This document shows positions 10,044 to 64,000 of a stretch of DNA of 64,000 bases, piece by piece. Both the position numbers and the translations under genes were made by a program. The stretch comes from an uncultured Alphaproteobacteria bacterium (GTDB lineage: Bacteria > Pseudomonadota > Alphaproteobacteria > Rhizobiales > Beijerinckiaceae): the NCBI GenBank assembly GCA_963794655.1, contig CAWCEV010000007.1, positions 15,708 through 79,707 on the forward strand, given 5' to 3'. The notes under the pieces are model-generated. The model saw only the letters and a program-made list of their open reading frames with translations. It did not search any database and was not told the DNA's origin. Every line of letters begins with the position of its first letter. Positions within the stretch are counted from its first letter, which is position 1.

Positions 10044-10150
10044 AAAACCCGGCTTGTCGTCGGATTTACCGATCGATAACGATGGACTCTCGAGGACGTA
10101 GCCCAGCAAAGTGCTCCTTAGTCCAACGACCACTTCGCGGCGCCGGACTC

Positions 10151-10205
10151 GAATGCCCGCTATTTGCGCCAAGGCGACGGCTGGAGTCGACGTTAAGCAG
10201 CCATT
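10151..10205 (+). repeat. dispersed two-box repeat copy
   Basis: GAATGCCCGCTATTTGCGCC at 10151..10170 and CGACGTTAAGCAGCCATT at 10188..10205, between the two cyclase genes. Confidence 0.6.
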
Positions 10206-10265
10206 TAGGGTTGTGACGGCCGGGCCCCGAGCTGCCCCGACGAACGCCTCTCACGCTACTCAAGC

Positions 10266-12200
10266 TCATCCTTCCGGTACTCCCGCCTTGCGCATGCCTC
10301 CCTCCAGAAATTCGCCCTGCGGTCCGCCGCTGAGAAAGCGACGGATCGAGAAGCCCGGATCGAGCGCCAGCCCGGCTTTGGCCTCGGCCTGCGCCTCTTC
10401 CAGTTTTCCAAGGTTCGCCAGCGTTGCGGCAAGGAAGAAATGGGTAAGCGGGTTGGTTCGATTATTCTCGATCGAGCGGCGATACAATGCGACTGCCTCC
10501 TCTTCGGCGCCCAAGTTCATCTTTGCGGCGCCTGCGAAGTGCAGCCAGAGCCAGGCGAAACTGTCGCGCGGAGAGAGACGCAAAGCTTCGTTTTCATGGG
10601 TTCCGGTTTCTTCGGGGTGACCGACGAATATCTTGGCGAGACCAATGAACCCGTGGGCAGTGGCCAAGTTCGGATCGAGCGCCAAGGCTCGCTCGAATTC
10701 GGCGACGCCCTGGTCCGCGCGCTTGGTCTCGATCAGGATGCCGCCCATGATCTCGTGGGCCAGAGCATCATTTGGCCTTAGAGAAAGCACCTTAGCGATC
10801 GCGGTTTCGGCCGCTGCGAGCCGGGCTTCCCTGTCGTCCGACAGTAAGGCTGCGCCCACCGAATAATCGACCCGTCCCACTCCGAGCAGCGCGTCGAGGT
10901 TGTTGGGATCGAGCGCCAGGGCGCGTTCAAAATAGCCGCGTGCGTGCGTCATATTCTCGATGTTGATACCCTTGTTGAGCGCGGCCAGTCCTTGAAAGAA
11001 GAGGTCCATGGAATCGGGATTCGATGCTCGTTCGGCCCGATGCGCCTCGGCCGACGTCAGTTCCGTCCCCAGTTGGTTGGCGAGGCGGGCGACGATCTCG
11101 TCCTGCATTTCGAAGAGATCCGCCAGAGGCTTGTCGAAGCGTTCGGCCCAGAGATGCTTGCCGCTTTCAGCGTCAATGAGTTGGACGTTGACGCGCATGC
11201 GGCTGGCGTCGCGCTGGACAGACCCTTCAAGCACATAGCGGACCCCGAGTTCCTTGCCGATTTCCCGAGTATCGAGATTCTTGCCCTTGAACGTGAAGGC
11301 GGTATTGCGGGCGATAACGAAGGAGCCGCCGAGACGCGACAGGTCGGTGGTCAAGTTCTCTGTAAGTCCGTCGGCGAAATAGTCTTGGCTCTGGTCGTTG
11401 GAGAGATTGGCGAACGGCAGCACAACGATGGACAGATGCTTGGCTTCAGCAGGCGTCGTTGGGTTCGAAGCAACCGGCGCGGGCGCTGTTCTCTCGACAA
11501 GAGTCGGCCGGTAGTTTCCGAGGAGCCACCACGCCCCGCACGCCAGAACGATCAGCAAAACCGCGACACCCGCGGCGAGCCGCGCCAGCGGGGAGCGCAT
11601 TTTTGGCGCGACGAGTCCTGACGGCACGGGTTTCGCCTCGGCAGGGACGCCCACTTGCAGCGAATAGACCCGGATCGATCTTTCGATGTTTTTGAGCTGG
11701 GTCGGGCCGAGATCGGTGACTTCCATGTCGAGCCTGCCGATGACCTGACGATAGGCGTCCTCAGAGAGACAGATCGCGCCTGGCGCGGCCACCCCCTCGA
11801 GTCGGGCGGCGATATTGACCCCGTCACCCATCAGATCGCCGTCAGCCTCCTCAACAACATCACCGAGGTGGATGCCGATACGAAATTCGATGCGTTGCTC
11901 CGGTGGCAGCCCGGAATTGCGCCCAATCATGCCTTGCTGGATTTCGACGGCGCAGCGCACGGCGTCGACGACGCTACGGAACTCGACGAGCGCGCCATCG
12001 CCAGTCAGCTTAACGGTGCGGCCATGATGCAGGGCGATGGTCGGGTCGGTGAGGTCGCCGCGCAAAGCCCGGAGCCGCGCTAGCGTCCGGTCCTCATCGG
12101 CCCCGGCGAGTCGGCTGTAGCCGACCACGTCGGCGACCGGGATCGCAGCGATCTTGCGCGTCTCGCCCACGGCGAACCTCTCCGCCTGGAAGACTAGCAT
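10266..12200 (-). CDS. class III adenylate/guanylate cyclase with TM segment and TPR repeats (tandem paralogue)
   Basis: 644 aa, colinear with 8073..10043 and highly similar along the whole length (same cyclase motifs; same C-terminal ...KAGVPEG). Confidence 0.9.
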   Translation of the reverse strand: MLVFQAERFAVGETRKIAAIPVADVVGYSRLAGADEDRTLARLRALRGDLTDPTIALHHGRTVKLTGDGALVEFRSVVDAVRCAVEIQQGMIGRNSGLPPEQRIEFRIGIHLGDVVEEADGDLMGDGVNIAARLEGVAAPGAICLSEDAYRQVIGRLDMEVTDLGPTQLKNIERSIRVYSLQVGVPAEAKPVPSGLVAPKMRSPLARLAAGVAVLLIVLACGAWWLLGNYRPTLVERTAPAPVASNPTTPAEAKHLSIVVLPFANLSNDQSQDYFADGLTENLTTDLSRLGGSFVIARNTAFTFKGKNLDTREIGKELGVRYVLEGSVQRDASRMRVNVQLIDAESGKHLWAERFDKPLADLFEMQDEIVARLANQLGTELTSAEAHRAERASNPDSMDLFFQGLAALNKGINIENMTHARGYFERALALDPNNLDALLGVGRVDYSVGAALLSDDREARLAAAETAIAKVLSLRPNDALAHEIMGGILIETKRADQGVAEFERALALDPNLATAHGFIGLAKIFVGHPEETGTHENEALRLSPRDSFAWLWLHFAGAAKMNLGAEEEAVALYRRSIENNRTNPLTHFFLAATLANLGKLEEAQAEAKAGLALDPGFSIRRFLSGGPQGEFLEGGMRKAGVPEG

Positions 12201-12209
12201 GAAAGACTC

Positions 12210-12229
12210 GAATGACCGCTAATTGCGCA
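12210..12229 (+). repeat. dispersed repeat, box 1 copy
   Basis: GAATGACCGCTAATTGCGCA, 9 nt upstream (on the minus strand) of the cyclase-2 ATG. Confidence 0.55.
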
Positions 12230-12383
12230 TTGCTGCCGTCTACTGGGTCGTCATTGCGCGGATAGCAGACGACAGGAGCGCGGCTCGCTATCGCGTGCTT
12301 TCAATGCCGCCGCCCGCGGCGTCAGCATCGACTGTGACGTCGATCACAGCCGCAAATACCAATCGACGCCAGAAGTTCCGCTG

Positions 12384-12719
12384 GTGCGGGCCGCTGGCGA
12401 GAGTCTCATGAGGTTCATGCGAGTCGCCCTGCCGAGCCACGACATCGCCGGTCGGATCATTCCATGCTTCATCGACGCCGGTCTTCCCGAACCCCGGGTT
12501 TTATGGGAGTCGATCGTCCCGGGCTCCGACATCACCCACTTGCGCTGGTTCATTTCGACCTACACAACGTTCCTGCCGCTCATGGAGCGGTTCGGCACGG
12601 TCGATCCCGGGGTCGGCGATCCCAAGACTCTGTTTGATCGGATTGTCGCGGCTGCGACTGCGGTTCGCGCACAAGGTGTGACCCCGCCCTACGTCAGCGC
12701 CTGGTCGGTCCGGAACTAG
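12384..12719 (+). pseudogene. possible C-terminal fragment of a methyltransferase-like gene
   Basis: The 111-aa ORF has a protein-like composition but no recognisable N-terminal domain and a GTG start, and is wedged between repeat copies. Assignment is weak. Confidence 0.3.
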
Positions 12720-12734
12720 CCACCCTGTCGGCGC

Positions 12735-12796
12735 GTGACCGCTATTGCGCATTCCGGCCGGCTGGAGTCGGTAGAGTCGAAGTGTGGCGCGGTGAC
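12735..12796 (+). repeat. dispersed repeat copy (box 1 + degenerate box 2) abutting the intron 3' side
   Basis: GTGACCGCTATTGCGCA at 12735..12751; GGCTGGAGTCG is shared with the 10151 copy; GTGACGTTAGGCC resembles box 2. Confidence 0.5.
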
Positions 12797-13505
12797 GTTA
12801 GGCCGAGCATGTCTGTTTCCGCCCCTTTCGTCTGGCGGTGCCTTAGTGGCTCAACCGTAGCTCCGTTTCCACACCCCGCTCATCGAACCGGACATGCGGA
12901 TTTCCCGCATCCGGCTCTCGGACAAGACCTCACGCCGTCTATCGCGTGCGACGCCGTCGGCGACTTCTGAACATCATGCGGAGTTGATAGGTTTCCCAAT
13001 CTCCATGTCCTTCGCCACGTGCTGCGTCTGTCTTGAACTGAGGCCCCTTCCCTCCGCCGCAGTTACCCGGTTTCCGCGGTACTACGAACCTCTCCGCCAC
13101 CCCAGAGCGCCCAGCCTGTCCCTCACGGGCGTCCGGTTGGTCCTGTCATCCCTGACCTGACCACGCTTTGGGGCTTCCCGTGTTGCGCGCGCTTTCCTTG
13201 TGTACGTGCTGCCGCCACTACCCCGGTGCAGCGGCTGGGCGTCGTCCTCGCTCATCTCACCCAGCCTTAACAGCCTTCCCCGATAACGTTGTCGGGTCGG
13301 CCTGCACATCGTCCTTTTCGAGGCCTGCTCAGCGTTCACTCGCGTTGCGGCCCGCACACTCGCGCGGTCACCTATACGTGACCTGCTACACCGAAGGCTT
13401 CAGCCACTTCGTTACCTCCATGGCTGCTCCGGTTGCTTCCGGCTGGAGCGGTCGCCGGGTGGGGCTTGCACCCACTGGAAAGCGCCGCCTTGTCACGGCG
13501 CACAC
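12797..13505 (-). mobile_element. ORF-less group II intron
   Basis: On the minus strand it starts GTGTGCGCCGTGACAAGG... at 13505 (GUGCG at 13503) and carries a canonical domain V at 12917..12885. At the domain IV position only a 10-codon stub remains (AAGGACATGGAG..., MEIGKPINSA*), and no reverse-transcriptase ORF is present in any frame. The 3' end is uncertain: 12797 (..GGCCTAAC, from repeat alignment) or about 12838 (..CTAAGGCAC). Confidence 0.75.
12885..12917 (-). ncRNA. group II intron domain V
   Basis: GAGCCGGAUGCGGGAAAUCCGCAUGUCCGGUUC, compared with the consensus GAGCCGUAUGCGAUGAAAGUCGCACGUACGGUUC. The AGC triad, the 2-nt bulge and the GAAA loop are all present. Confidence 0.85.
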
Positions 13506-13560
13506 GTTTAGCGGACATCCCGGATCGTTGCCGCGAACGCCCCGGACAATCAGAAGGGCT
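13506..13560 (+). repeat. dispersed repeat fragment (box 2 + tail) abutting the intron 5' side
   Basis: GTTTAGCGGACATCCCGGATCGTTGCCGCGAACG...AGAAGGGC aligns with 7896..7940 (GACAT-3nt-GGATCG-3nt-CCG.G.ACG...AGGGC). Confidence 0.45.
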
Positions 13561-13645
13561 AATGCTCGCGATCGGCCAGCGAAGCTAGGGCCGTGCGCCG
13601 CGACTCCGCGACTCCGGCATTGGAGGGTCGCTCTGGCCCTGAGGG

Positions 13646-14764
13646 TTATGACTCTGAAGGTCGAAGACGCGCGAGGAGTCCGGCGAGTTCGGCTTGGCGG
13701 CGGGTGTTCGTCTTGGCAAACACGGCTTTCAACTGGGTGCGGGCGGTCTCTCGGCTCACTCCCACTGAAGCCGCAGCCGAGTCGATCCCGACGCCCGAGG
13801 CCAGTCTTGTGGCCAGTTTGGCCTCGGCGGCTGTCAGCCCAAAGGCGGCGCACAAATTTTTCGAACTGGGCCTCAGCGGCGACCTCAGATCGGTCAGGAG
13901 AAGGATCAGGCGGCCGGGATTGAACAAATCGCTGCCGAACGCCGTGACCGGCATCGCCTCGACCAAGAGCCACGGCGCTTCGTCCCGGTCGACGACGATT
14001 GGCGGATAGGACTGGGCTGCGCCGGGCGAGATATGCAAGGCCGTCGAAACCAGCTGCTGCAATCGGCGATTGCTGGCTGGGTCATGGGCCGCAGGACGAC
14101 CCCGGACCAGGTAGAAGTCGGCGCCAAGCAGATCTTGCGCGGGCAGATTCATCTGGGCTGCGCGGCCGGTCGCGTCGAGAATGACGGCGGCGGAGCTGAC
14201 TCGCTCCAGCGCTGAAAGCTTCGAGGCGGTGTCGAAAGCCGCAAACTTCTGGGCCAGACTGACGATTTTGGCGAGATAGGGACCGACCTTGCCGACGCGT
14301 GTCGCGTCTTCCGGCGTAAACGGGTCGTCTCCGCGGTAGAAGCCCATGCACCAGTCGCCGCCGTCGACTGAGAAAAACGAGGCCGCGAACCACTCCCGCT
14401 TCTCCGGTCGCGCCGTCTCAAGAAAGAAGGGCAGCGTACGGCGCTCTTCCTCCGTCGAGAGGTCGTGCTCCAGGGCTGAGGTCTGACCCGCCCGTATGAA
14501 CGATGTGCAACGCTCAAGGTACCGCCCGATATGCGGGTCTGGAGCATGACCCTGGTTGCGGACCCAGCGGTCAAAAAACGCCTCGTGTCCCACGGACATC
14601 GGCGCCGGCGCGGGCGAGTTGTCGCGATCGTGCTCGAAGAAAGTGCTGCTGGCGCCGCCGAACAATTCAGCGAGCGATTGCAGCGCCGCGCCCCATCGCG
14701 CCGGCGACAGGATCGCATCGTGGCAAGCCTCGAGAGCGCGCTCCGTTCGCGCTGACAGAAGCAT
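13646..14764 (-). CDS. LuxR-family transcriptional regulator
   Basis: 372 aa with a C-terminal GerE-type HTH (FGLTAAEAKLATRLASGVGIDSAAASVGVSRETARTQLKAVFAKTNTRRQAEL) and an N-terminal sensor-like domain. Confidence 0.85.
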   Translation of the reverse strand: MLLSARTERALEACHDAILSPARWGAALQSLAELFGGASSTFFEHDRDNSPAPAPMSVGHEAFFDRWVRNQGHAPDPHIGRYLERCTSFIRAGQTSALEHDLSTEEERRTLPFFLETARPEKREWFAASFFSVDGGDWCMGFYRGDDPFTPEDATRVGKVGPYLAKIVSLAQKFAAFDTASKLSALERVSSAAVILDATGRAAQMNLPAQDLLGADFYLVRGRPAAHDPASNRRLQQLVSTALHISPGAAQSYPPIVVDRDEAPWLLVEAMPVTAFGSDLFNPGRLILLLTDLRSPLRPSSKNLCAAFGLTAAEAKLATRLASGVGIDSAAASVGVSRETARTQLKAVFAKTNTRRQAELAGLLARLRPSES

Positions 14765-14839
14765 GGCGGCTACTCCGCGAAAACCCGGAGGTTAGCCCTC
14801 CGCTCGGCGAAAGGATAGGGCCGCGCCAATCCAAGTTAC

Positions 14840-14855
14840 TCACCCGTTCGGGTGA
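14840..14855 (+). promoter_or_regulatory. palindrome TCACCC-GTTC-GGGTGA, candidate operator (copy 1)
   Basis: Perfect 6-bp arms in the luxR/YHS divergent intergenic region. It heads a ~75-nt leader conserved in three copies. Confidence 0.35.
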
Positions 14856-14917
14856 TGTGCATGGCGGCCGAGCGCGGCAGCGTCGGCACCGTCATTGCGA
14901 GCCGAGAGGAGCTGAAA

Positions 14918-15184
14918 ATGACGATGACCAGGAAGATATTGATTGCGCTATCCCTTACTACGTTCGCGTCGCCCGCGTTCGCTGATACGACGCCGAGACT
15001 GGCGATTGGCGGCGTGGACATCGTTGCTTATCTCGCCAAGGGAAAGCCGGTCCCAGGGACGCTCGAAAACCAGACTGTCTGGCGAGACGCGCGCTGGCAA
15101 TTCGCCAACAAGGAGGACCTCGATCTCTTCGTCGCCAACCCGGAAAAATATGCGCCCCACTATGATATGCATGGGGCGTATTAG
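14918..15184 (+). pseudogene. YHS-domain periplasmic protein, truncated copy
   Basis: MTMTRKILIALSLTTFASPAFADTTPRLAIGGVDIVAYLAKGKPVPG... parallels 15942..16400 up to ...YAPHYDMH. About 8 nt covering the conserved HCAMG Cys codon are then missing and the frame ends at TAG. Confidence 0.7.
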
Positions 15185-15232
15185 GACGACAAGCGTCCAG
15201 CGTTCCTTGCAGGCCGATCCACAAAATCTGGC

Positions 15233-15248
15233 TCAACCGTTCGGGTGA
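15233..15248 (+). promoter_or_regulatory. palindrome TCAACC-GTTC-GGGTGA (copy 2, one arm mismatch)
   Basis: Second copy of the leader (15229..~15310), with no intact gene downstream. Confidence 0.3.
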
Positions 15249-15284
15249 CGTGCATGGCGCCTGGGCGTGACAGCGTCCGCGCCG

Positions 15285-15533
15285 CTATTGCGACCCGAGG
15301 AGCAAAGAGATGGGCAGGACCGGCTTTGGGCAAAGACGGCCTCGCTCCACAATCCAAATTTGCTCGCTGTTTGGATGTGAATGTCTTGCCGAGATGGATC
15401 CTGGCTCCATCGTCACACGCGTGATGGTGACCACAGCCTCAGGTGCGTTTTTCGGCCACACGATCTGAACTGAGCGAACGCCAAGCTTTTCCAGTGTCGC
15501 AAAGTCCACGGCAGAGAGACGCTGGATACTCAT
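15285..15533 (-). pseudogene. cupin-domain protein, 3'-truncated
   Basis: MSIQRLSAVDFATLEKLGVRSVQIVWPKNAPEAVVTITRVTMEPGSISARHSHPNSEQIWIVERG then runs into the leader repeat; the second cupin motif is missing. Confidence 0.55.
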
Positions 15534-15540
15534 ATTTATG

Positions 15541-15693
15541 TCAGCCGTTATTAGGACTTCGCTTTTCGCTCCGACAGGCGATGGCGGCGTTTTCGACGTC
15601 GTAGTCGTAGAGCGACTTGCGGAAGGTCGCAGAATTCGCGATTTCGCGATCGCGTTGCTCGAGGGCGCGCTCAGTTCTTTCAGACAGAGACAT
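15541..15693 (-). CDS. 50-aa ORF derived from a duplicated luxR 5' end
   Basis: MSLSERTERALEQRD... compared with the LuxR start MLLSARTERALEAC.... The upstream GGCGGCTNCTCCG...GATAGGGCCGC is also shared with 14765..14825. Probably not functional. Confidence 0.35.
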   Translation of the reverse strand: MSLSERTERALEQRDREIANSATFRKSLYDYDVENAAIACRSEKRSPNNG

Positions 15694-15865
15694 GGCGGCT
15701 GCTCCGGCCACAACGGAAGCCGGGGGTGAGATAGGGCCGCACAGCAACTACAACTGACTCAGACCCTGTTGCACAGTTGCACAGACGCCTACAACAGGCA
15801 CGGAAGTGCTGGACGATCGCGCTTGGTCTTGGGGTTCGCCGCGAGCGGATCGGCTGAAGCCGATT

Positions 15866-15881
15866 TCACCCGTTTGGGTGA
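15866..15881 (+). promoter_or_regulatory. palindrome TCACCC-GTTT-GGGTGA (copy 3)
   Basis: 61 nt upstream of the intact YHS gene ATG (15942). Confidence 0.35.
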
Positions 15882-15941
15882 TGCGCATATCCGGCGAGCG
15901 TGACAGCTTCGGCACGCAACCTAACAATTCAGGGGCGAGAC

Positions 15942-16400
15942 ATGCGTGCAACCACTGCATTAACACTCACTATGTTCGCTTTGCCTGCCTTTGCTGATAC
16001 TGCCCCAAGCATGGACGGAATGCCGCGACTGGCGATTGGCGGTTATGATACCGTCGCTTATTTCACCGTCGGTAAGGCAGTCCCTGGTAGTCTTGATTAT
16101 CAGACTGTCTGGCATGACGCGCGTTGGCAATTCGCTAACAAGCAGGATCTCGATCTCTTCCTCGCGAATCCAGAAAAATATGCGGCTCAATATGATGGTC
16201 ATTGCGCCATGGGCGTCTCATACGAAAACGGCCACAAGGATACCGTCGATCCTAAGGCTTTCACCATCGTTAACGGTAAGCTGTATGTGAACCATACGAA
16301 ATATTGGACCAACGAGTGGCGTAAGAATGAAGCTGAAAACATCAGCCGCGCCGACAAAAATTGGGTGACCGTGAAGGACACCCCGGAGCCAACAAAATAA
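15942..16400 (+). CDS. YHS-domain periplasmic protein
   Basis: Signal peptide MRATTALTLTMFALPAFA, then ...AIGGYDTVAYFTVGKAVPG...WQFANKQDLDLFLANPEKYAAQYDGHCAMGVSYENG... Confidence 0.85.
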   Translation: MRATTALTLTMFALPAFADTAPSMDGMPRLAIGGYDTVAYFTVGKAVPGSLDYQTVWHDARWQFANKQDLDLFLANPEKYAAQYDGHCAMGVSYENGHKDTVDPKAFTIVNGKLYVNHTKYWTNEWRKNEAENISRADKNWVTVKDTPEPTK

Positions 16401-16410
16401 GTAGCAAAAA

Positions 16411-16434
16411 AAGGCGCTGAAACGCGCCTTTTTC
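16411..16434 (+). terminator. rho-independent terminator (bidirectional shape)
   Basis: A-run, then AAGGCGC-TGAAAC-GCGCCTT, then TTTT, 11 nt after the stop at 16400. Confidence 0.7.
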
Positions 16435-16519
16435 GCCACGTCGAGGTGACATTCAACCGGTCGGGACGGAAAGAACTCTAGGAGACCGTCCGGTTCGGTC
16501 ACTCGCGGAACCGTTAGGG

Positions 16520-16539
16520 GAATGACCGATATTTGCGCA
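16520..16539 (+). repeat. dispersed repeat, box 1 copy
   Basis: GAATGACCGATATTTGCGCA, directly at the 5' breakpoint of the truncated cyclase/TPR remnant. Confidence 0.55.
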
Positions 16540-16559
16540 AAGGGGACCCAAGACTCGCT

Positions 16560-16869
16560 GCCGCGATAATCTTGTCGGGTCGAAGCGCCCCATTCCAGAC
16601 CGCTGCCAGGATGCCTATTGTGGCCTGCGGTCGATCGAAGCGAACCGAAATTTCCCGCTTGCTCATTTTACCTTGTCCGTCGCCCTTGCGCAGGTTGGTC
16701 GACCGGACGAGGCGCGTTCCGCGGTCAAGGCCGGTCTCGCGCTCAACCCGACCTTTACTATTCCCGCGCCCGAGCCACCTACACACCAGTGAGCGACGAC
16801 CCGACGTATCTAGCGCAGACTGAGGCCGTTCTCGAGGGCTTCCGCACGGCCGGGGTTCCTGACGAATGA
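16560..16869 (+). pseudogene. 3' remnant of a third cyclase/TPR paralogue (frameshifted)
   Basis: LRSIEANRNFPLAHFTLSVALAQVGRPDEARSAVKAGLALNPTFTI aligns with FRRSIEDNRTFPLEHFFLAAMLANRGDEEEARSEVMAGLALDPGFTI of cyclase 1. After a frameshift it ends ...EAVLEGFRTAGVPDE* (compare ...MNKAGVPEG*). Confidence 0.7.
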
Positions 16870-17176
16870 CCGCGACCGCCTCCTGGAAGGGCAGCTTTTG
16901 CACGCGCTCCGGTCGTTCCTGAGGGGACCAGTTTACGGGCGATATAAGTTCAAGCGGCCGGGTCTGATTTAACCAGCACCATCTTAGGCTTGCGATCCCC
17001 ATCGCTCTCGAAATGCAGGCTATCCGCGACCGCCCGCTCTGCGACGGTTTCGATTGTCTCTTGATCCGCGTTTGTTGGGGTTTGCGCGAGCGGCCCGTCA
17101 CTGACATCAGGCAAACTAGATGTTTAGTCCCGGGCTTTGATGGAGCATCCTTGTCGAGTGATTCGAAGGATGCGCT

Positions 17177-55408: not shown

Positions 55409-56784
<1,376 letters not shown>

Positions 56785-56989
56785 TGAAATCGGATTTTCC
56801 TTGAGGAGCCGCGTCCTGCGCCGTGACGCGGAGGTTGGCTTAAGCCTTGTCGCGCGCCCTCATATAGCAAGCGCGGCGGCCCCGAAAGAGCGTTTGAATG
56901 GGCGTTTTCGTTGCGGACGGGGTGGGGTTAGAGAGCCCGGTAAGACTTATCCCCAGACGCTTTGTGGCGGCGGCGAGCGGCGGCGCTGG

Positions 56990-57421
56990 CTAGCCCAAAA
57001 TGCGATCGATTTCGACCACGGCCTCGGTCACGGCGAATAGAAGAGCGGCGATTCCACGGGCTTCGTCCGCGTGTTGATCGCAATCCTCGGGTCTCTTGTC
57101 GGCGGCGCCGGCCAATTCCTCGATCCGCAGCGCCGCCTGGGCCACGCGCCCGGCGCCGACCGAAAGCGCCGAGCCGCGCAGTTTATGCGCGATTTTTGCC
57201 TTTGATTCCAGCGACAAAAGCGACTGATCGGCCAGTTGCGCGGTCAGCGCCGGGGCCTGCAGCCGGAACAGCCCCAACAATTCCGCCTCAAGCTCGTGGT
57301 CGCCGAGGCACTGGCGCGCAAGATGGACGAGGTCGAGCGGTGGATCGAGGGCCCCTGCCCTCGATTCGTCCAGATTGGAAGCGATCGCCGCCCGCTTCAA
57401 GGCTCCCGGACCCTCACGCAT
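56990..57421 (-). CDS. Hpt (histidine phosphotransfer) domain protein
   Basis: ...KAKIAHKLRGSALSVGAGRVAQAALRIEE... matches the HxxKG....GA Hpt motif; 143 aa. Confidence 0.7.
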   Translation of the reverse strand: MREGPGALKRAAIASNLDESRAGALDPPLDLVHLARQCLGDHELEAELLGLFRLQAPALTAQLADQSLLSLESKAKIAHKLRGSALSVGAGRVAQAALRIEELAGAADKRPEDCDQHADEARGIAALLFAVTEAVVEIDRILG

Positions 57422-57682
57422 CGCGCCCCCGCCAGTCCGCGACCCCCCGAAAACCGGCAGGCGCGGCCGATAATAGGCTGAAGATAATGGAGATTCGTGG
57501 TAACCGAAGCGTTAACGACGTTTGCATTATGAGCGGCTCACGCGGTTTTCATCCTTGAGGCGCGGCGGTAGACTGCAACGTGGTTAATTCACAGTGTTTG
57601 GTCCGGCCAAGGGAAGCTGGAAAACGCTGGCGTGCGGCTGGGTCGTTCTGGCGACCGAGGCCGATGGAGTGAGGCGCACACG

Positions 57683-60600
57683 ATGGCAAAACAAAATCCG
57701 GCGACGGATCCCGTTTCCGCGGCGATGTCGGCGATCGAAAGCGCGCTGAACCTCACCGAAGACGACGAGGCCGTCACGGTCGAGAGCGCGGCTCTTCCCC
57801 AGCTTGTTCCGGCTAGGACGACGACCGCAACCCCGGTTCTCAAGCCAAGCCCGGTCGGCGGCGAGCCTTCGACGCTGCTCCGCCCAGGGCCCGGGCCTGC
57901 GGCCAGCTCCCCCGAGACGGAACCGAGGCCGGCGATCCAGACCAGCGCGCCTGCGAACGACGACCGCGAGACCGTCGGGGCGATCCTGCAGGCGATGAAC
58001 GCGCGCCCGGCGAGCCGGACGCCCTTCGTCCTCGCCCTGATCGGCTCGCTCCTGTGGGCCGCGATCTGCGTGCTTTACGCCTATGCCGCCTTGTGGCCCT
58101 CGGCTCCGGCGCGCCGGGTCGACCTCTTGTTGCGGCCGGAGACCCCGCTGCTCCTGCTGGCGACGCTCGCGCCGATCTTCTGCATGTTCGCCTTCGCCGC
58201 GCTCACGCGGCGGTTGCGCGAGCTTAGGCAATCGGCGCGCGCGATCTCCCAGGTCGCGGTGCGACTGGCCGAGCCCGAGGCGACCGCTGGCGAGCACATG
58301 GCGAACCTCTCCCAGGCCATTCGCCGCGAGCTCACGTCGATGGGCGACGGGGTCGAACGGGCGCTTGCGCGCGCCGCCGAACTCGAGACCCGGGTGCAGT
58401 CCGAGGTCTCGACCCTCGAGCGCTCCTATTCCGACAATGAGCGCAGGATCCGGCTCTTGATCGCCGAGATGGCCGATCAGCGCGAGGCGATCGTGACCAG
58501 CGGGACGCGGGTCCGCGACGCCATCGCGACTGCTCACGACAGCATCGCCGCCGACCTCAATACCGCCGGCGCAGGCCTTAGCGAGCGCCTGATCGAAGCC
58601 GGCCAAAGGGTGACTTCGTCGCTCGGGACAGCGTCGGAGGACGTCGCCCGCAACCTTGAGGGCGCCGGGTCGACGACGCTCGAGCGCATTGTCGCCGAAG
58701 GCGCGCGAATGAGCGTGTCGATCGCCGGAATCGGCGAAGGCCTCGCCGAGCGCCTCGCTGACACCAGCCAGAAGGCCGCCGGCGAAATCCTCGCCCGGGT
58801 CGGCGACGTCGATAGCCGCCTCAAGGCTGTCGGCGACAACCTGCTGTCGCGTTTGGGCGAGCGCGGCGACAACCTGATCGAACGCATTCAAACCTCGCAA
58901 GATTCGGTCGTGGAGGCGATCGACGCGCATGGCGACCGGGTTGCGACCCGGCTCGCGGACGCCTCTGAATTCGCACGGAGCGCCGTTGGCGCCCATGCCG
59001 ACGAGGTGGTCAGCCGCATCAGCGGCAGCAGCGCCCGCGCCGTTGAGGCGATCCGGGGACACGGAGAGGCCGTGTCGGATCAGCTCGACGCGGCGTCGCT
59101 CGCGCTCTCCGGCGCATTCGGCGCTCACGGCGACGATATCGTCGGCCGTATCAACGCGAGCAGCGCCGAGGTCCTCGACGTCATTCGCGCCCATGGCGAT
59201 TCGATCGCCACTCGCCTCTCCGACGCCGCCGCTCAGGCTGGCGACGCCATCGGCGCCCACGCGGACGCCGTCGTGAGCCGCGTTTCCTCAAGCAGCGCCG
59301 AGGCCGCGCGGACGCTGACCACCCATGCCGACGTCCTGGCGTCGCGCCTCTCGGAGGCCGCAGACGTCGTCAACGCGCACGGCGACGCCGTCGCCACGCA
59401 GCTTGCCGGCGCGTCGGCCGTGATGAGCGGCGCGGTCGCCGCCTACGCCGACGAGGTCGTGAGCCGCGTCAGCGCAAGCGGAGCGCAAACCGTCGACGCG
59501 ATCCGCCTGCATGGCGATTCCGTCGCCGACCAGCTCGCCCAGGCCTCGTCACAGCACCGAGGCGCCGTTGGCGAATATGCCGATGAAATCATTGGCCGGG
59601 TCAGCGCGAGCGGGCAGCAGACGGTCGATGCGATCCGGCTCCATGGCGATTCGGTCGCCGACCAGCTGGCCCAGGCGTCCGCCGCAAGTCGCGGCGCGGT
59701 GGCCGCATATGCCGACGAAGTGGTCGGCCGCGTCAGCGCGAGCGGAACACAAGCTGTCGATGCGATCCGGCTTCATGGCGATTCGGTCGCCGACCAGCTC
59801 GCTCACGCCTCGGCGCAACACCGAGACGCGGTGGCCGCATACGCCGACGAGGTGGTCGGCCGCGTCAGCGCGAGCGGAGCGCAAGCCGTCGATGCGATCC
59901 GGCTCCATGGCGATTCGGTCGCCGATCGACTGGCGGACACCTCGACGGCGACGCGAACCGCCGTCGGAGCATTTGTAGACGACGTCGTCGGCCGCGTCGC
60001 CACGAGCGCCCTGCATGCCGTCGAAGCGATCCGCGTCCAGGGCGATTCGGTCGCTGTCCAACTCGCGGACGCGTCGGCTGCGACTCGCAACGCCGTCGAC
60101 GCCTTTGCGAACGACGTGGTCGGGCGCGTCAGCTCGAGCGGCGCCGAGGCCGTCGAGGCGATCCGCGCCCAGGGCGATCTCGTCACCGATCGGCTTGGTC
60201 AAACGGCCGATGCGGTCGTCGGCGACTTCAGCCTCCGGTCCAATTCGCTCATCGAGCGCCTCGAGGCCGGCAGCGCGGGGCTTTCCGACACTATCGTAGT
60301 CCACGGCGACAGCCTCGTTACGCGCCTCAACGACGCCGCCGACCGCCTCCACGACACCGTGGTGGTCCGCGGCCAGGTCCTGGAAGACAGGCTGACCGGT
60401 TCGAGCGAGCGCTTGTCGTCCCTGATCGGGGACCGCGCGGAAGACGCGGCGGCGATCCTCGACGCCGCGGCGGTTCGCTGGGGCGATCAGTTCAACACCC
60501 GCGAGAGCCAGTTGCGTGGCGCGGTCGAGGCGCAGAACGAGGCGATCGAGACCCTCTTCGACGAATCGACGCGCCGCCTCGTTGGCGCGATCTCGGCCGA

Positions 60601-63600
60601 AGGCGCCGTGGCCCAAGCGCAGATCGAGGTGTCAACGACGCAGTCGCTGGCCCGGATGGCCGACGAGAGAGCGCATATCAACGAACGCTTCACCGCGCTG
60701 GCCAATGACGTGGCGGCCGCCGCGGCGACCGGGGCGAGCAACGTGCACGATACGCTGCGTGACCAGATCGCGGCCTTCGACGGCATCGTCAATAATCGTG
60801 GCGTGCGCCTTGTGGACGCGGTGTCGCAGCAGACCGAGCACATGCGCCAATATCTCGAGGCGCTGGACGGCCTTGTCGGCGAAAGCGGGCATAACGTCAT
60901 CGATCGCCTGGGCGCCCATTCCGACGAGCTCAACGCACGCATCGCCGGACATCTCGACGCCATCGACGCGATGATGAACGCGCGCAGCGACGACTTCGAC
61001 AAGCGCTTCGGCGACTATTCGGATCGGCTGGCGGCAAATTCGACTACGCGGGCCGAGCAGTTCGAGGCCGCGTCCGCCGCTCACAGCAATGCGGTCGATC
61101 TCGCGCTTTCCTCTCACTCGCGCCGGATCGAGACGTCGCTCGGCGACGCGCTGGCGCGCTTCGAGGGCGCGATCGACGGGCGCGGCCGCGAACTTGTCGT
61201 CCAGATCGGCGACCGGTCCGCCCTGCTCACCGCCGATCTCGGCGCCAAGCTCGCGGAGATCGAGGATACCCTCGTCAACCGTGGCGGGGCGATCAACGAG
61301 AAGCTCGGCCAGCGCAACGACGAGGCGGCCGCGTTGTTCGACGCCCGCCTCGAAGCCGTGGAGGAGCGCGCCGGGGCGAAACTGCGCGACGTGTCGACGA
61401 CGCTCGAGAGCCTGCTCATGCGGATCGAGGACGCGCTCGCCCAGCGCGGTCGCGCGCTCACCGAAACGCTCGCCCGCAACACGCTGGAAACCGCCAAGAC
61501 GCTCGGCGACGGCGGTCGCGAACTTGTGCAAGGCATGGACGCGAAATCAGCCGAAATCGGCGAAACCTTGCAACGGCGAGCCGACGAGCTGACGCAGACG
61601 CTCTCGGCGGTGGCCCGCGACATGAATGCTACGCTGACGGGCCGGGTCGAAGAAGTCTCCAGATCGCTCGGCGTCAGTGTCGATCAGTTCAAGGACCAGG
61701 TCGTCACACCGATGCAGGATCTGAGCCGGCGATTCGAATCGAGCAGGGCGGAGCTCGAGGACAAGGTCAGCGATCATGCCGAGCGGGTTTCCGGTTTGCT
61801 CGACCAGCACAAAGCCTCGCTCGGCGCGGCGTTCGACTCGCACCGGGGCGTTGTCGTCGACGCAGCCAGGCAGAGCGCGCAGATCTTCGACGCGCGCCTT
61901 GCGGCTCTCTCCGAAGCCGCCGATCAGAGCACGAGGATCATCGATTCGCGCCTTTCGGATCTGGTGGAGGCCGCCAACAGCAACGCCGAGAGCATCGATG
62001 AGCGGCTCGCCGCGCGCATTCATGCGATGAGCGAGACGCTGGCGAAAACGGCGGCGGACGCCGATTCGACCTGGGCCGCGCGCGGAGCGAGCGTCACCGG
62101 CGCGATCAGGGCGCGGGTCGACGAGCTACGCGAAGTCATCGAAGGGCGCGGCGCCGAGCTCCTGGCTTCGCTTGGCGAGCGCGGCGAGGACGTTTCGGCG
62201 AGAATCGCCGGCGTCGGCGAGCGCGCGATCCATACCCTCGATCAGCAGATGGTCAGCCTCGCCTCCCTTTTGACCCGGCGGACAGACGAGCTCATCGCCG
62301 CGGTCAATGGCAGCGCGGCAGACCCCGTCCGCACCTTGAGCGCGCTCACCGGACAATTGCGCTCGGAGGTGGCCGATTCCAGCCAGTCGCTGCGCGACAT
62401 CGCCGCCGAGACGACCAACCGGTCGGCCGAAGCGATCGACGGGCTCATGAAGCGGCTGACCGAACAGGTCGAGGCGTCCGGCGCCGCGCTTGGCGAGGCC
62501 GTCGCCCGCAGCGCGGAAAACTCGGTCGGGGCGCTCACCGGCACCGGCGACCGGCTGCGCAATGAACTAACGCTAGTGATCGACAACCTCGGCCATACCA
62601 GCGCGGTCATCGACCGCGACATCGGATCGGCCGGCGACCGGCTTGCCGCCGTGCAGAGCGGACTCGCCGCGCGGGTCGACGACTTCCAGCAAGCGCTCGG
62701 CGCCATCGCCTCGCAGGTGGCGGCGCTCGGGCAGATCTCCTCGGCCACCCAGTCCGACGCCGGCGCGCTTGCCGGTCAGCTCGCCCAGCACGCTGAAACC
62801 CTGGCCGCGGTCGGACGGGATCTCACCGAGCAGCAGCGCTCGATCGATCGCGCGCTCGAACAGCGCCAGAGCAGCCTTCAGGGCCTGATCAGCGATCTCG
62901 CCGGCCGCAGCGAAGCCTTCGAGGCGACGCTCGGGCGGTTTGCCGCTAACGTGGAGGACAGTTTCGCGAGGGCCCAGGCTCGCGCACAAGAGATCAGCGC
63001 CACCCTCGCCTCGGCGACCAGGGGCGCCTCGATCGCCGTCGCCGGCCAGTTCGAAACCATCCGCGACAACGCGGCCAAGGAGCGCGAGCGGACCGCGCAG
63101 ACGCTGCAGGCGACCCTCGAACAGACCAACGCCCAGCTCTCCGGCGCGCTCGAAAACGCCGCCGGCCGATTCCGCCAATCGGTGGATGAAGTGAAGGAGA
63201 TGGCGGGCCAGGTCCAGCGCGAGCTCGACGAGACGCGCCAGGAGCTGCGCCGCGGCGTGCTCGACCTGCCGCGGGAAACAAGCGAAACCACTGAGGCCAT
63301 GCGGCGGGTCGTTTCCGACCAGATTCGGGCGTTGAAGGAGCTCGCGGCTCTGGTCGCCGACTCGGGCGGCGCCTTCGACGTCGCCGAGCCCGCGCCGCTG
63401 GTCGCCGCGACGGCCGCCGGCGCCGGCGCTGCTGCCCCGCGCTTCGAGCCGCCGCAGCCGCCGCGCCGCGACGAGACCAACCTGCGCACTCTCGAGGCGC
63501 CTTCGCCGCGCGAGACTGCGCTTGCGCGCATCGGCGAAGCCATCGCTCCGCAGGTGATCGAGAGCCCGCCGCAAGGGCTGATTGGGACCATGCCGGACGC

Positions 63601-64000
63601 CGACCCGCCGCCCGGCCGGAGCCCGGCCCAGCCGTGGCCCGCGCCCTCGCCTGCACCGACATTGGCTCCGCCCGCATCGGCCTCCGACCGCGGCCAGGCC
63701 GGATGGCTCTCGAACCTGCTCGCGGCCGCCGAACGCGAGGAGCCCGCGCCCCCCTCGCCGAAGGCGACGGAGACGCTCGACGCGCTCGCGCTGGAAATCT
63801 CCGGCCTGATCGACAATGCGGCGGCGGTCGAGATGTGGGACCGGTGGCGGCGCGGCGACACCGCCGCTGTCTCGCGCCGTCTCTATACCGAGTCTGGCCA
63901 ACGGGCGTTCGACGAGATCCGGCGCCGCTATCGCTCCGACCCGGCGTTCCGCGACACGACGACCCGCTATATGCAGGAGTTCGAGCGCGTGTTGGCGAAG
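57683..64000 (+). CDS. giant membrane-anchored amphipathic-helix repeat protein (GPR/RgsE-like), 3' end outside the window
   Basis: The frame with codon starts congruent to 2 mod 3 is open for 2,106 codons from ATG 57683 (GGAGTGAGG lies 9-17 nt upstream) to base 64000. It is not in the ORF track. Two TM helices (PFVLALIGSLLWAAICVLYAYAAL; PLLLLATLAPIFCMFAFAAL) are followed by ~1,750 aa of A/E/R/L/D-rich helical repeats. A Pro-rich linker and a conserved-looking tail (...MWDRWRRGDTAAVSRRLYTESGQRAFDEIRRRYRSDPAFRD...) complete the visible part. Confidence 0.9.
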   Translation, partial: MAKQNPATDPVSAAMSAIESALNLTEDDEAVTVESAALPQLVPARTTTATPVLKPSPVGGEPSTLLRPGPGPAASSPETEPRPAIQTSAPANDDRETVGAILQAMNARPASRTPFVLALIGSLLWAAICVLYAYAALWPSAPARRVDLLLRPETPLLLLATLAPIFCMFAFAALTRRLRELRQSARAISQVAVRLAEPEATAGEHMANLSQAIRRELTSMGDGVERALARAAELETRVQSEVSTLERSYSDNERRIRLLIAEMADQREAIVTSGTRVRDAIATAHDSIAADLNTAGAGLSERLIEAGQRVTSSLGTASEDVARNLEGAGSTTLERIVAEGARMSVSIAGIGEGLAERLADTSQKAAGEILARVGDVDSRLKAVGDNLLSRLGERGDNLIERIQTSQDSVVEAIDAHGDRVATRLADASEFARSAVGAHADEVVSRISGSSARAVEAIRGHGEAVSDQLDAASLALSGAFGAHGDDIVGRINASSAEVLDVIRAHGDSIATRLSDAAAQAGDAIGAHADAVVSRVSSSSAEAARTLTTHADVLASRLSEAADVVNAHGDAVATQLAGASAVMSGAVAAYADEVVSRVSASGAQTVDAIRLHGDSVADQLAQASSQHRGAVGEYADEIIGRVSASGQQTVDAIRLHGDSVADQLAQASAASRGAVAAYADEVVGRVSASGTQAVDAIRLHGDSVADQLAHASAQHRDAVAAYADEVVGRVSASGAQAVDAIRLHGDSVADRLADTSTATRTAVGAFVDDVVGRVATSALHAVEAIRVQGDSVAVQLADASAATRNAVDAFANDVVGRVSSSGAEAVEAIRAQGDLVTDRLGQTADAVVGDFSLRSNSLIERLEAGSAGLSDTIVVHGDSLVTRLNDAADRLHDTVVVRGQVLEDRLTGSSERLSSLIGDRAEDAAAILDAAAVRWGDQFNTRESQLRGAVEAQNEAIETLFDESTRRLVGAISAEGAVAQAQIEVSTTQSLARMADERAHINERFTALANDVAAAAATGASNVHDTLRDQIAAFDGIVNNRGVRLVDAVSQQTEHMRQYLEALDGLVGESGHNVIDRLGAHSDELNARIAGHLDAIDAMMNARSDDFDKRFGDYSDRLAANSTTRAEQFEAASAAHSNAVDLALSSHSRRIETSLGDALARFEGAIDGRGRELVVQIGDRSALLTADLGAKLAEIEDTLVNRGGAINEKLGQRNDEAAALFDARLEAVEERAGAKLRDVSTTLESLLMRIEDALAQRGRALTETLARNTLETAKTLGDGGRELVQGMDAKSAEIGETLQRRADELTQTLSAVARDMNATLTGRVEEVSRSLGVSVDQFKDQVVTPMQDLSRRFESSRAELEDKVSDHAERVSGLLDQHKASLGAAFDSHRGVVVDAARQSAQIFDARLAALSEAADQSTRIIDSRLSDLVEAANSNAESIDERLAARIHAMSETLAKTAADADSTWAARGASVTGAIRARVDELREVIEGRGAELLASLGERGEDVSARIAGVGERAIHTLDQQMVSLASLLTRRTDELIAAVNGSAADPVRTLSALTGQLRSEVADSSQSLRDIAAETTNRSAEAIDGLMKRLTEQVEASGAALGEAVARSAENSVGALTGTGDRLRNELTLVIDNLGHTSAVIDRDIGSAGDRLAAVQSGLAARVDDFQQALGAIASQVAALGQISSATQSDAGALAGQLAQHAETLAAVGRDLTEQQRSIDRALEQRQSSLQGLISDLAGRSEAFEATLGRFAANVEDSFARAQARAQEISATLASATRGASIAVAGQFETIRDNAAKERERTAQTLQATLEQTNAQLSGALENAAGRFRQSVDEVKEMAGQVQRELDETRQELRRGVLDLPRETSETTEAMRRVVSDQIRALKELAALVADSGGAFDVAEPAPLVAATAAGAGAAAPRFEPPQPPRRDETNLRTLEAPSPRETALARIGEAIAPQVIESPPQGLIGTMPDADPPPGRSPAQPWPAPSPAPTLAPPASASDRGQAGWLSNLLAAAEREEPAPPSPKATETLDALALEISGLIDNAAAVEMWDRWRRGDTAAVSRRLYTESGQRAFDEIRRRYRSDPAFRDTTTRYMQEFERVLAK
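58910..60283 (+). repeat. in-frame tandem array: ten 132-bp (44-aa) units plus one 54-bp half unit
   Basis: Units start at 58910, 59042, 59174, (half unit 59306), 59360, 59492, 59624, 59756, 59888, 60020 and 60152. Consensus is VDAIRLHGDSVADQLAQASAQHRGAVAAYADEVVGRVSASGAQA. Units 59492..60019 are the most similar at DNA level. Confidence 0.9.

Follow-up and report, generated by a model that had tools for sequence, protein, structure and literature searches.

The giant gene at the end of the window

The window analysed here, a stretch of 64,000 nucleotides (nt) from an uncultured Alphaproteobacteria bacterium (contig CAWCEV010000007.1, positions 15,708 to 79,707), ends within a giant gene (57683..64000, + strand) of whose roughly 2,140 codons it holds the first 2,106. 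The gene is almost certainly a member of the GPR/RgsE family, named after GPR (Atu1348) from Agrobacterium tumefaciens and RgsE (SMc00190) from Sinorhizobium meliloti, and an ortholog of both, because sequence, architecture and genomic position all agree. The evidence comprises (i) an open frame that runs off the end of the window, (ii) homology to GPR at both ends of the protein, and (iii) a match to the Pfam family PF01442 (Apolipoprotein A1/A4/E).

Translation of 57683-64000 yields 2,106 codons (6,318 nt) and zero stops, as an earlier note on this DNA had claimed; over the same interval the other two + strand frames contain 38 and 20 stops, and the three minus-strand frames 7, 27, and 59. 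At the stop rate of the other + strand frames (1.4% per codon), the probability of a stop-free run of 2,106 codons is about 2e-13. The guanine-cytosine (GC) content of the three codon positions follows the order GC3 > GC1 > GC2 (0.73/0.52/0.84 for positions 1/2/3), the third position being high as in well-supported genes of the window, including the FNR-like flavoprotein gene (0.62/0.39/0.82) and the OprB gene (0.59/0.46/0.81). The nearest preceding in-frame stop is located at 57569, and a GGAG sequence lies 13 nt 5' of ATG 57683. The protein read from this ATG has MAKQNPATDPVSAAMSAIESALNL as its first residues, a match to the N-terminus conserved among its relatives (consensus, MAKQN(P/S)ATDPVSAAMSAIESALNL), in agreement with the start.

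The giant frame is missing from the list of open reading frames (ORFs) of the window because the ORF tool leaves out those running off the source, in keeping with the earlier supposition that it went unlisted for want of a stop inside the window. The ORFs listed over 57683-64000 comprise (i) eleven + strand ORFs of at least 60 amino acids (aa), every start being divisible by 3, and (ii) four long minus-strand ORFs of 558, 355, 299, and 442 aa, the same counts as previously reported. Their products are rich in R/A/G or R/S/P, and a Pfam scan of the four long minus-strand ORFs gave no match. The codon-position comparison proposed in the earlier note places the GC peak of these four ORFs at position 1 (0.81-0.86) and that of the + strand ORFs mostly at position 2, and the listed ORFs are judged to be shadows, as the earlier note held, because such peaks are those expected of shadows of a real frame. 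The interval 57683-64000 is the 5' 98% of one real gene, and all ORFs listed over it are shadows. For annotation, the lesson is that a 6.4-kb gene of an essential type can go unlisted when the sequence stops before the gene does.

Architecture of the protein

The putative cytoplasmic N-terminal region (aa 1-114; 57683..58024, +), defined by composition and by an alignment with seven relatives including GPR, comprises a conserved 24-residue head, a Pro/Ala-rich spacer, and the motifs MA..D..AA.SAIE.ALNL (conserved) and ANDDR, with 15% Pro and 17% Ala in the first 100 residues. The whole protein contains exactly two hydrophobic segments, which correspond to (i) the predicted transmembrane (TM) helix 1 (approximately aa 115-137; 58025..58093, +), with the invariant Trp125 and a peak of 2.39 in a 19-residue Kyte-Doolittle window, and (ii) the predicted TM helix 2 (approximately aa 155-175; 58145..58207, +), with the invariant Pro164 and a hydropathy peak of 2.46, aligned with TM1 and TM2 of GPR, respectively. 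The Pro/Ala-rich N-terminus and the two TM helices described in the earlier note are thereby recovered. A family-specific juxtamembrane module follows (aa 176 to approximately 270; 58208..58492, +), the most conserved block of both the N-terminal alignment and an alignment of 43 relatives. Its consensus is RELR..ARS...RLAEPE...QAIRRE..MGDGVERALARAAELE..V.SEV..LERSYSDNERRIR, and the block reads RELRQSARAISQVAVRLAEPE...QAIRRELTSMGDGVERALARAAELETRVQSEVSTLERSYSDNERRIR in the window protein.

The apolipoprotein-type repeats extend over approximately 1,720 proline-free residues (58208..63373, +), as delineated by Pro content, autocorrelation, and 14 PF01442 stretches. The Pro content of residues 201-1880 is 0-1% per 100-aa block, and the identity autocorrelation of the core displays peaks at lags 11, 22, 33, 44, 55, 66, and higher multiples; as read from the sequence, lags of 11 and 22 are the signature of apolipoprotein-type 11/22-mers. 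The nearly proline-free composition and the 11/22 periodicity agree with the long amphipathic repeat core claimed earlier. The core is presumed to form a continuous amphipathic helix.

Within the core, approximately 11 tandem 44-residue units, each formed by two 22-mers, occupy aa 407-890 (58901..60352, +), as defined by autocorrelation and by placing the units in register. The unit displays a His-containing core, A-H/Y-G/A-D-x-V-x-x-R-L, with 51% identity at lag 44, and at the DNA level Tandem Repeats Finder reports a period of 132 nt in 5.7 copies (59429-60178). Orthologs of the Roseiarcus clade carry 3-21 copies of the unit and measure between 1,654 and about 2,950 aa in total. A. tumefaciens GPR lacks the unit and carries a 22-mer array of its own. 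Judging from these sequences, the length of the scaffold appears to evolve by repeat expansion.

The core is followed by a Pro/Ala-rich low-complexity linker (aa ~1901-2004; 63383..63694, +), with 24% Pro in aa 1901-2000, and by a conserved C-terminal domain (63695..64000, +), identified by alignments with GPR and relatives, of which the window shows aa 2005-2106 and cuts off the final 34 aa; this is the Pro-rich linker and tail that the earlier note had described. The C-terminal domain contains near-invariant positions across 43 relatives. For one relative (P0001), the homologous 139 residues at the C-terminus were modelled with AlphaFold2 from a 43-sequence alignment; the model is all-alpha and comprises seven helices, with a predicted template modelling score of 0.70 and a predicted local distance difference test score above 90 over the last ~100 residues, so that the domain, as modelled, looks folded and specific. 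A Foldseek search of this model against the PDB found nothing comparable (best E=0.6; template modelling score below 0.3). GPR cannot function without its C-terminal region but still forms rings (PMC8262873), and the domain, having no PDB fold match, could represent a new pole-targeting or enzyme-recruiting module.

Homology to GPR and RgsE

The likeness to GPR had been proposed in the earlier note and can now be given as an alignment. A database search with the GPR N-terminus for full-length Atu1348 or RgsE returned fragments of at most 1,219 aa, and the GPR sequence was taken from Fig. S3 of PMC8262873 as a machine-read PDF that covers 2,099 of the 2,115 residues and includes some misread letters; its first 700 residues are 99% identical to a database fragment. 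BLASTP of the window ORF against GPR aligns aa 4-590 with residues 3-597 (28% identity, E=9e-46). The full-length comparison gave this N-terminal high-scoring segment pair only; when the last ~500 residues were compared on their own, aa 1678-2105 aligned with residues 1605-2064 of GPR (30% identity, E=2e-48). The two end matches are collinear, and the identity to GPR reaches 34% over the first 330 aa. In an eight-sequence N-terminal alignment, GPR displays the Trp of TM1, the Pro of TM2, and the motifs RLA.P, Q..R, and M..G.E...ARA.EL, the TM helices and juxtamembrane motifs occupying the same columns in GPR and in the window protein. GPR was aligned directly, and the link to RgsE runs through GPR, to which RgsE is reported to be 42% identical (PMC7327166). 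Altogether, the features found in common with GPR/RgsE comprise (i) collinear similarity outside the repeats, (ii) two TM helices, (iii) size, (iv) a PF01442 core, (v) a Pro-rich region and a C-terminal domain, and (vi) the position of the locus.

The Pfam check suggested in the earlier note returned PF01442 in 14 stretches with E=1.6e-75, the score of 253 bits lying well above the cut-off of 90. In the PDB sequence search the sole match was human ApoA-IV (3S84, E=8e-5). NCBIfam matches to ZorA and SpiroCoCo coiled-coil models fell far below the family cut-offs and were dismissed as noise. An exchangeable apolipoprotein in the strict sense is a secreted, soluble protein of lipid particles made solely of 11/22-mer amphipathic helices, a definition that does not apply to the window protein, with its membrane anchor of two helices, its family-specific termini, and a start unlike a signal peptide; the core works like an apolipoprotein repeat, but the protein is not a member of that class.

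A search with the whole protein disclosed 464 relatives (24-46% identity; 1,250-2,870 aa), all unnamed or 'hypothetical', from Bradyrhizobium, Roseiarcus, Beijerinckiaceae, Methylovirgula, and Xanthobacteraceae. Among the sequences collected, fragments P0268, P0269, P0288, P0292, and P0312 carry the source names 'kinesin', 'antitoxin', 'ABC-type transporter Mla subunit MlaD', and 'conjugal transfer/entry exclusion protein', which are misleading on fragments of the GPR family. Some relatives bear the newer Pfam accessions PF27984 and PF28217, to which local Pfam scans gave no match. Earlier publications describe the GPR/RgsE family, its architecture, and its occurrence in all Rhizobiales families, and the window gene adds a member.

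The gene end and near-identical copies

The FNR-like neighbour is encoded identically on a 245-kb contig, ENA ERZ25039548 contig_52743 (hereafter L001), which is 97-98.6% identical to the window over 18.5 kb. The giant gene of L001 (2340-8764) differs from that of the window by 13 substitutions and is 99.8% identical apart from two indels, each a single extra T in a T run (window-equivalent positions 60565 and 62064), which break the frame. Gene calls on L001 comprise fragments of 1,008 and 618 aa and two opposite-strand calls, one of which is the 299-aa antisense ORF of the window. The 618-aa fragment runs past the last codon of the window for 34 codons, VSQSDRDGAQWRAYLLSNTGKVYTMLAHASGRLG, and then reaches a stop. 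In this way L001, 98.6% identical, supplies the stop that the earlier note proposed to look for. The window gene would accordingly be expected to continue for 34 codons past base 64000, ending GKVYTMLAHASGRLG, which would place the stop about 105 nt past the window and make the protein about 2,140 aa long, both values being derived from L001, a near-identical strain or assembly, and not from the source contig.

The gene is also broken in L003, L004, and L006-L014: many copies in metagenome-assembled genomes (MAGs) with 'contig_N' names are frameshifted, and many 'MFD' copies end in out-of-frame garbage. Extra T's in T runs, as on L001, are typical of an assembly error, which is a likelier source of the two L001 frameshifts than a pseudogene, and the frameshifts of the public MAG copies are likewise likely to be assembly errors rather than marks of pseudogenes. 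In public assemblies of the nanopore type, single-base errors in homopolymers thus break the gene into pieces, and gene callers report antisense shadow ORFs instead.

Distribution and closest relatives

When species-representative genomes were scanned with the juxtamembrane pattern, at least 600 stretches matched, of which at least 591 were confirmed, and a search with the N-terminal 330 aa gave 655 cluster representatives at E<=1e-10 among 1.84 billion. Among the matches listed, the closest are MAGs of Roseiarcus sp., 'MFD' soil MAGs, and Roseiarcus fermentans DSM 24875, with 63-79% identity over 330 aa; judged by its best loci, the host is Roseiarcus-like (Roseiarcaceae, Hyphomicrobiales). 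Intact orthologs, including that of the R. fermentans isolate genome, are between 1,356 and about 2,950 aa long, and all share the C-terminal end GKVYTMLAHA.GR. The best 80 of the at least 591 loci lie on 80 distinct contigs with distinct isolate names, which is read as a single copy per genome. RgsE homologs have been reported in all Rhizobiales families (PMC7327166). The window gene and its relatives extend the GPR/RgsE family, with architecture and synteny intact, to Roseiarcaceae and to peat and soil relatives, an extension that supports the scaffold as a core part of cell growth in Hyphomicrobiales.

Upstream neighbours and the intergenic region

Three minus-strand genes precede the giant gene: (i) a divergent single-domain Hpt gene (56990..57421, -; PF01627, E=3e-7), with the phospho-His motif AHKLRGSA; (ii) a 2Fe-2S ferredoxin (Fer2) gene (56464..56784, -), supported by PF00111 (E=1e-12) and by synteny; and (iii) the FNR-like flavoprotein gene (55409..56446, -). 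A listed + strand ORF at 56962-57558 (198 aa, Arg/Pro-rich, no Pfam match) was rejected as a gene, being a shadow over the minus-strand Hpt gene.

The position of these neighbours was compared across the window, Rhizobium leguminosarum, and the best 80 loci. In the tblastn survey of these 80 Hyphomicrobiales loci, Hpt and/or Fer2/FNR genes occur in the same place in most, across many families, and the Fer2-Hpt arrangement is seen in about 50 of the 80. The R. leguminosarum gene (CP090098.1) matches GPR residues 1-2098 and is 60% identical at the N-terminus, where it has one frame change; this GPR ortholog is preceded by opposite-strand Hpt and Fer2 genes, as in the window, the whole arrangement lying at 8438-16994 of that locus (L082). 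The Hpt proteins of the window and of the R. leguminosarum neighbourhood are 43% identical, and the AHKLRGSA motif is kept. The literature searched contained no mention of the neighbours of Atu1348 or SMc00190, or of a link between Hpt and the scaffold.

The intergenic region between the Hpt gene and the giant gene comprises 261 bp and contains two oppositely oriented 11-mers, TTAACGACGTT (57512-57522, +) and TTAACCACGTT (57577-57587, -), which are candidate regulatory sites; they lie about 65 bp apart and are invariant in 12 loci of the Roseiarcus clade. In 47 of 81 loci, the 900 nt preceding the gene contain the sequence GTTAACG[AG]CG, mostly between -140 and -210, against a chance expectation of about 0.002 per locus (a rough estimate that assumes equal base frequencies). 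A canonical CtrA box was considered and rejected: there is no TTAA-N7-TTAA within one mismatch near the gene, and the conserved GTAA-N8-TTAAC is wrongly spaced. A leader peptide, MVTEALTTFAL, over the upstream block was also rejected, its ATG being missing in L005, L017, and L018, and the reading frame in L004 running through the stop. A scan of 57300-57800 for sigma-70 promoters and terminators found none, and Rfam gave no match to the intergenic region at E<=1.

One speculative reading of this arrangement, to which we give a low probability, is that the scaffold gene, the divergent Hpt gene, and Fer2 form an order-wide regulatory cassette with a shared control region that carries the TTAACGACGTT/TTAACCACGTT sites, in which a His-Asp phosphorelay would be wired to the expression or function of the scaffold; a separate reading, speculative as well, is the new C-terminal module suggested above. 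Clues to the regulation of the scaffold could come from the Hpt pairing, the palindrome-like upstream sites, the variable number of 44-residue repeats, and the C-terminal fold without a match.

Elsewhere in the window, Rfam detects group II intron domains (RF00029, 42.6 bits; RF02003, 101 bits) at 12845-12919 and 13340-13477 (-). The spacing between the two matches, about 420 nt, is too short for a reverse-transcriptase ORF, and the intron at 12845-13477 (-) may be ORF-less or degraded.

Proposed function and competing explanations

GPR, RgsE, and the homolog from Brucella abortus all localise to the new pole (PMC9938171). In A. tumefaciens, GPR forms a hexameric ring of ~200 nm, and its depletion leads to round or curved cells with delocalised peptidoglycan synthesis, which becomes circumferential without GPR; RgsE binds TolQ, RgsA, and RgsS (PMC7327166), and Hyphomicrobiales are described as lacking MreB (PMC10259793). 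The window gene very likely encodes a GPR/RgsE ortholog that acts as a growing-pole scaffold in a Roseiarcus-like host. Taken by itself, a role in polar growth in this particular host is probable, an analogy drawn because GPR, RgsE, and the Brucella homolog act in this way, as orthologs in other families at ~30% identity.

According to the proposed mechanism, (i) the two-TM hairpin would anchor the protein in the inner membrane, leaving the short N-terminus and a C-terminal part of ~1,950 residues in the cytoplasm, as Phobius predicts for RgsE; (ii) the proline-free 11/22-mer core would form a long rod, membrane-apposed and/or self-associating; (iii) the Pro-rich flexible linker would carry the small conserved all-alpha domain; (iv) the protein would assemble at the new, growing pole; and (v) the scaffold, as a structural organiser, would confine peptidoglycan and membrane synthesis to that pole.

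Several points weigh against this explanation. The identity to GPR is ~28-34%, the central region resists a residue-by-residue alignment, and the repeat expansion is lineage-specific; moreover, the machine-read GPR sequence (2,099/2,115 residues) has some letters misread. The functional evidence comes from A. tumefaciens, S. meliloti, and B. abortus, none of them Roseiarcaceae or Beijerinckiaceae, and the MreB-less polar growth of the host would follow from an order-level statement (PMC10259793). Krol et al. allow different roles for distant RgsE homologs, and RgsE is dispensable for viability in S. meliloti (PMC7327166). The earlier wording, that the gene 'governs' unipolar growth, may overstate its role because RgsE is not essential in that species.

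The explanation that survives best among the alternatives, improbable as we consider it, is that of a true GPR-family homolog with another membrane or lipid role, for example in intracytoplasmic or photosynthetic membranes, or at lipid or polyhydroxybutyrate bodies. Apolipoprotein-type amphipathic repeats bind lipid, and bacterial PF01442 proteins are found on lipid droplets (PMC8262873); the suggestion that distant homologs may act differently (PMC7327166), the highly divergent central region with its clade-specific 44-residue repeats, and the identity of ~30% to GPR point the same way. However, the TM anchor, the juxtamembrane module, and the C-terminal domain, which matter in GPR, are conserved and collinear, and the synteny is kept from Rhizobiaceae to the Roseiarcus clade. 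Furthermore, polar growth is the rule in the order, and the distant homologs that Krol et al. had in mind lie outside Rhizobiales.

A decaying pseudogene, or a long frame arising by accident from GC-rich repeats opposite real minus-strand genes, has a very small probability. The two frameshifts of L001, the fragments and the 299-aa antisense ORF called there, the many broken MAG copies of the nanopore type, and the antisense frame with only 7 stops would fit such a scenario. On the other hand, the window copy stays open for 6,318 nt, a length that chance would allow with the probability of ~2e-13 given above, the L001 indels are extra T's in T runs of an otherwise 99.8%-identical gene, and intact orthologs of 1,356-2,952 aa exist, one of them in the R. 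fermentans isolate genome. The + strand frame has 464 homologs, whereas the four minus-strand ORFs display the GC pattern of shadows and no Pfam match. Equally hard to credit is a generic coiled-coil, SMC-like, or 'kinesin'-type filament protein with a purely compositional likeness to GPR, as hinted at by low-level matches to ZorA, Mer2, and SpiroCoCo and by relatives named 'kinesin' or 'MlaD', since those coiled-coil matches lie far below the cut-offs, the non-repetitive N- and C-terminal modules are specifically common to GPR, and the Pfam and NCBIfam scans detect no motor or ATPase domain.

Comparison with known systems

The eukaryotic exchangeable apolipoproteins (ApoA-I/A-IV/E, PF01442) share with the window protein the 11/22-residue amphipathic repeat, and human ApoA-IV was used by Zupan et al. 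to define the A-IV domains of GPR (PMC8262873). In contrast to apolipoproteins, the window protein is ~5-8 times longer, membrane-anchored, and predicted to be cytoplasmic, with terminal modules of its own, and would not be a secreted protein of lipoprotein particles.

The published layout of GPR/RgsE comprises two N-terminal TM helices, PF01442 over ~75% of the protein, and ~1,700 aa of continuous helix. RgsE (2,089 aa), by description, resembles the window protein in having a two-TM inner-membrane anchor and a mainly cytoplasmic location, and is described with up to ten apolipoprotein A1/A4/E domains (PMC7327166), PF01442 also covering the core of the window protein. The comparison with GPR highlights differences in (i) sequence, with an identity of ~28-34%; (ii) repeats, GPR displaying its own DSRTAAL...AEERIA 22-mers whereas the window protein carries ~11 His-containing 44-mers; and (iii) host, A. 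tumefaciens for GPR and Roseiarcaceae for the window. Besides these differences, GPR (2,115 aa) and the window protein (~2,140 aa) are alike in size, in their two N-terminal TM helices, in the juxtamembrane module RLAEPE...GDGIER..AR..ELE...LERSY.DNE.R, and in the near-continuous PF01442/ApoA-IV-like helical core. The Pro-rich region of GPR (aa 1890-2000; PMC8262873) corresponds to the linker of the window protein (aa ~1901-2004), and GPR and the family of the window protein have in common a conserved C-terminal domain with the end GKVYTMLAHA.GR.

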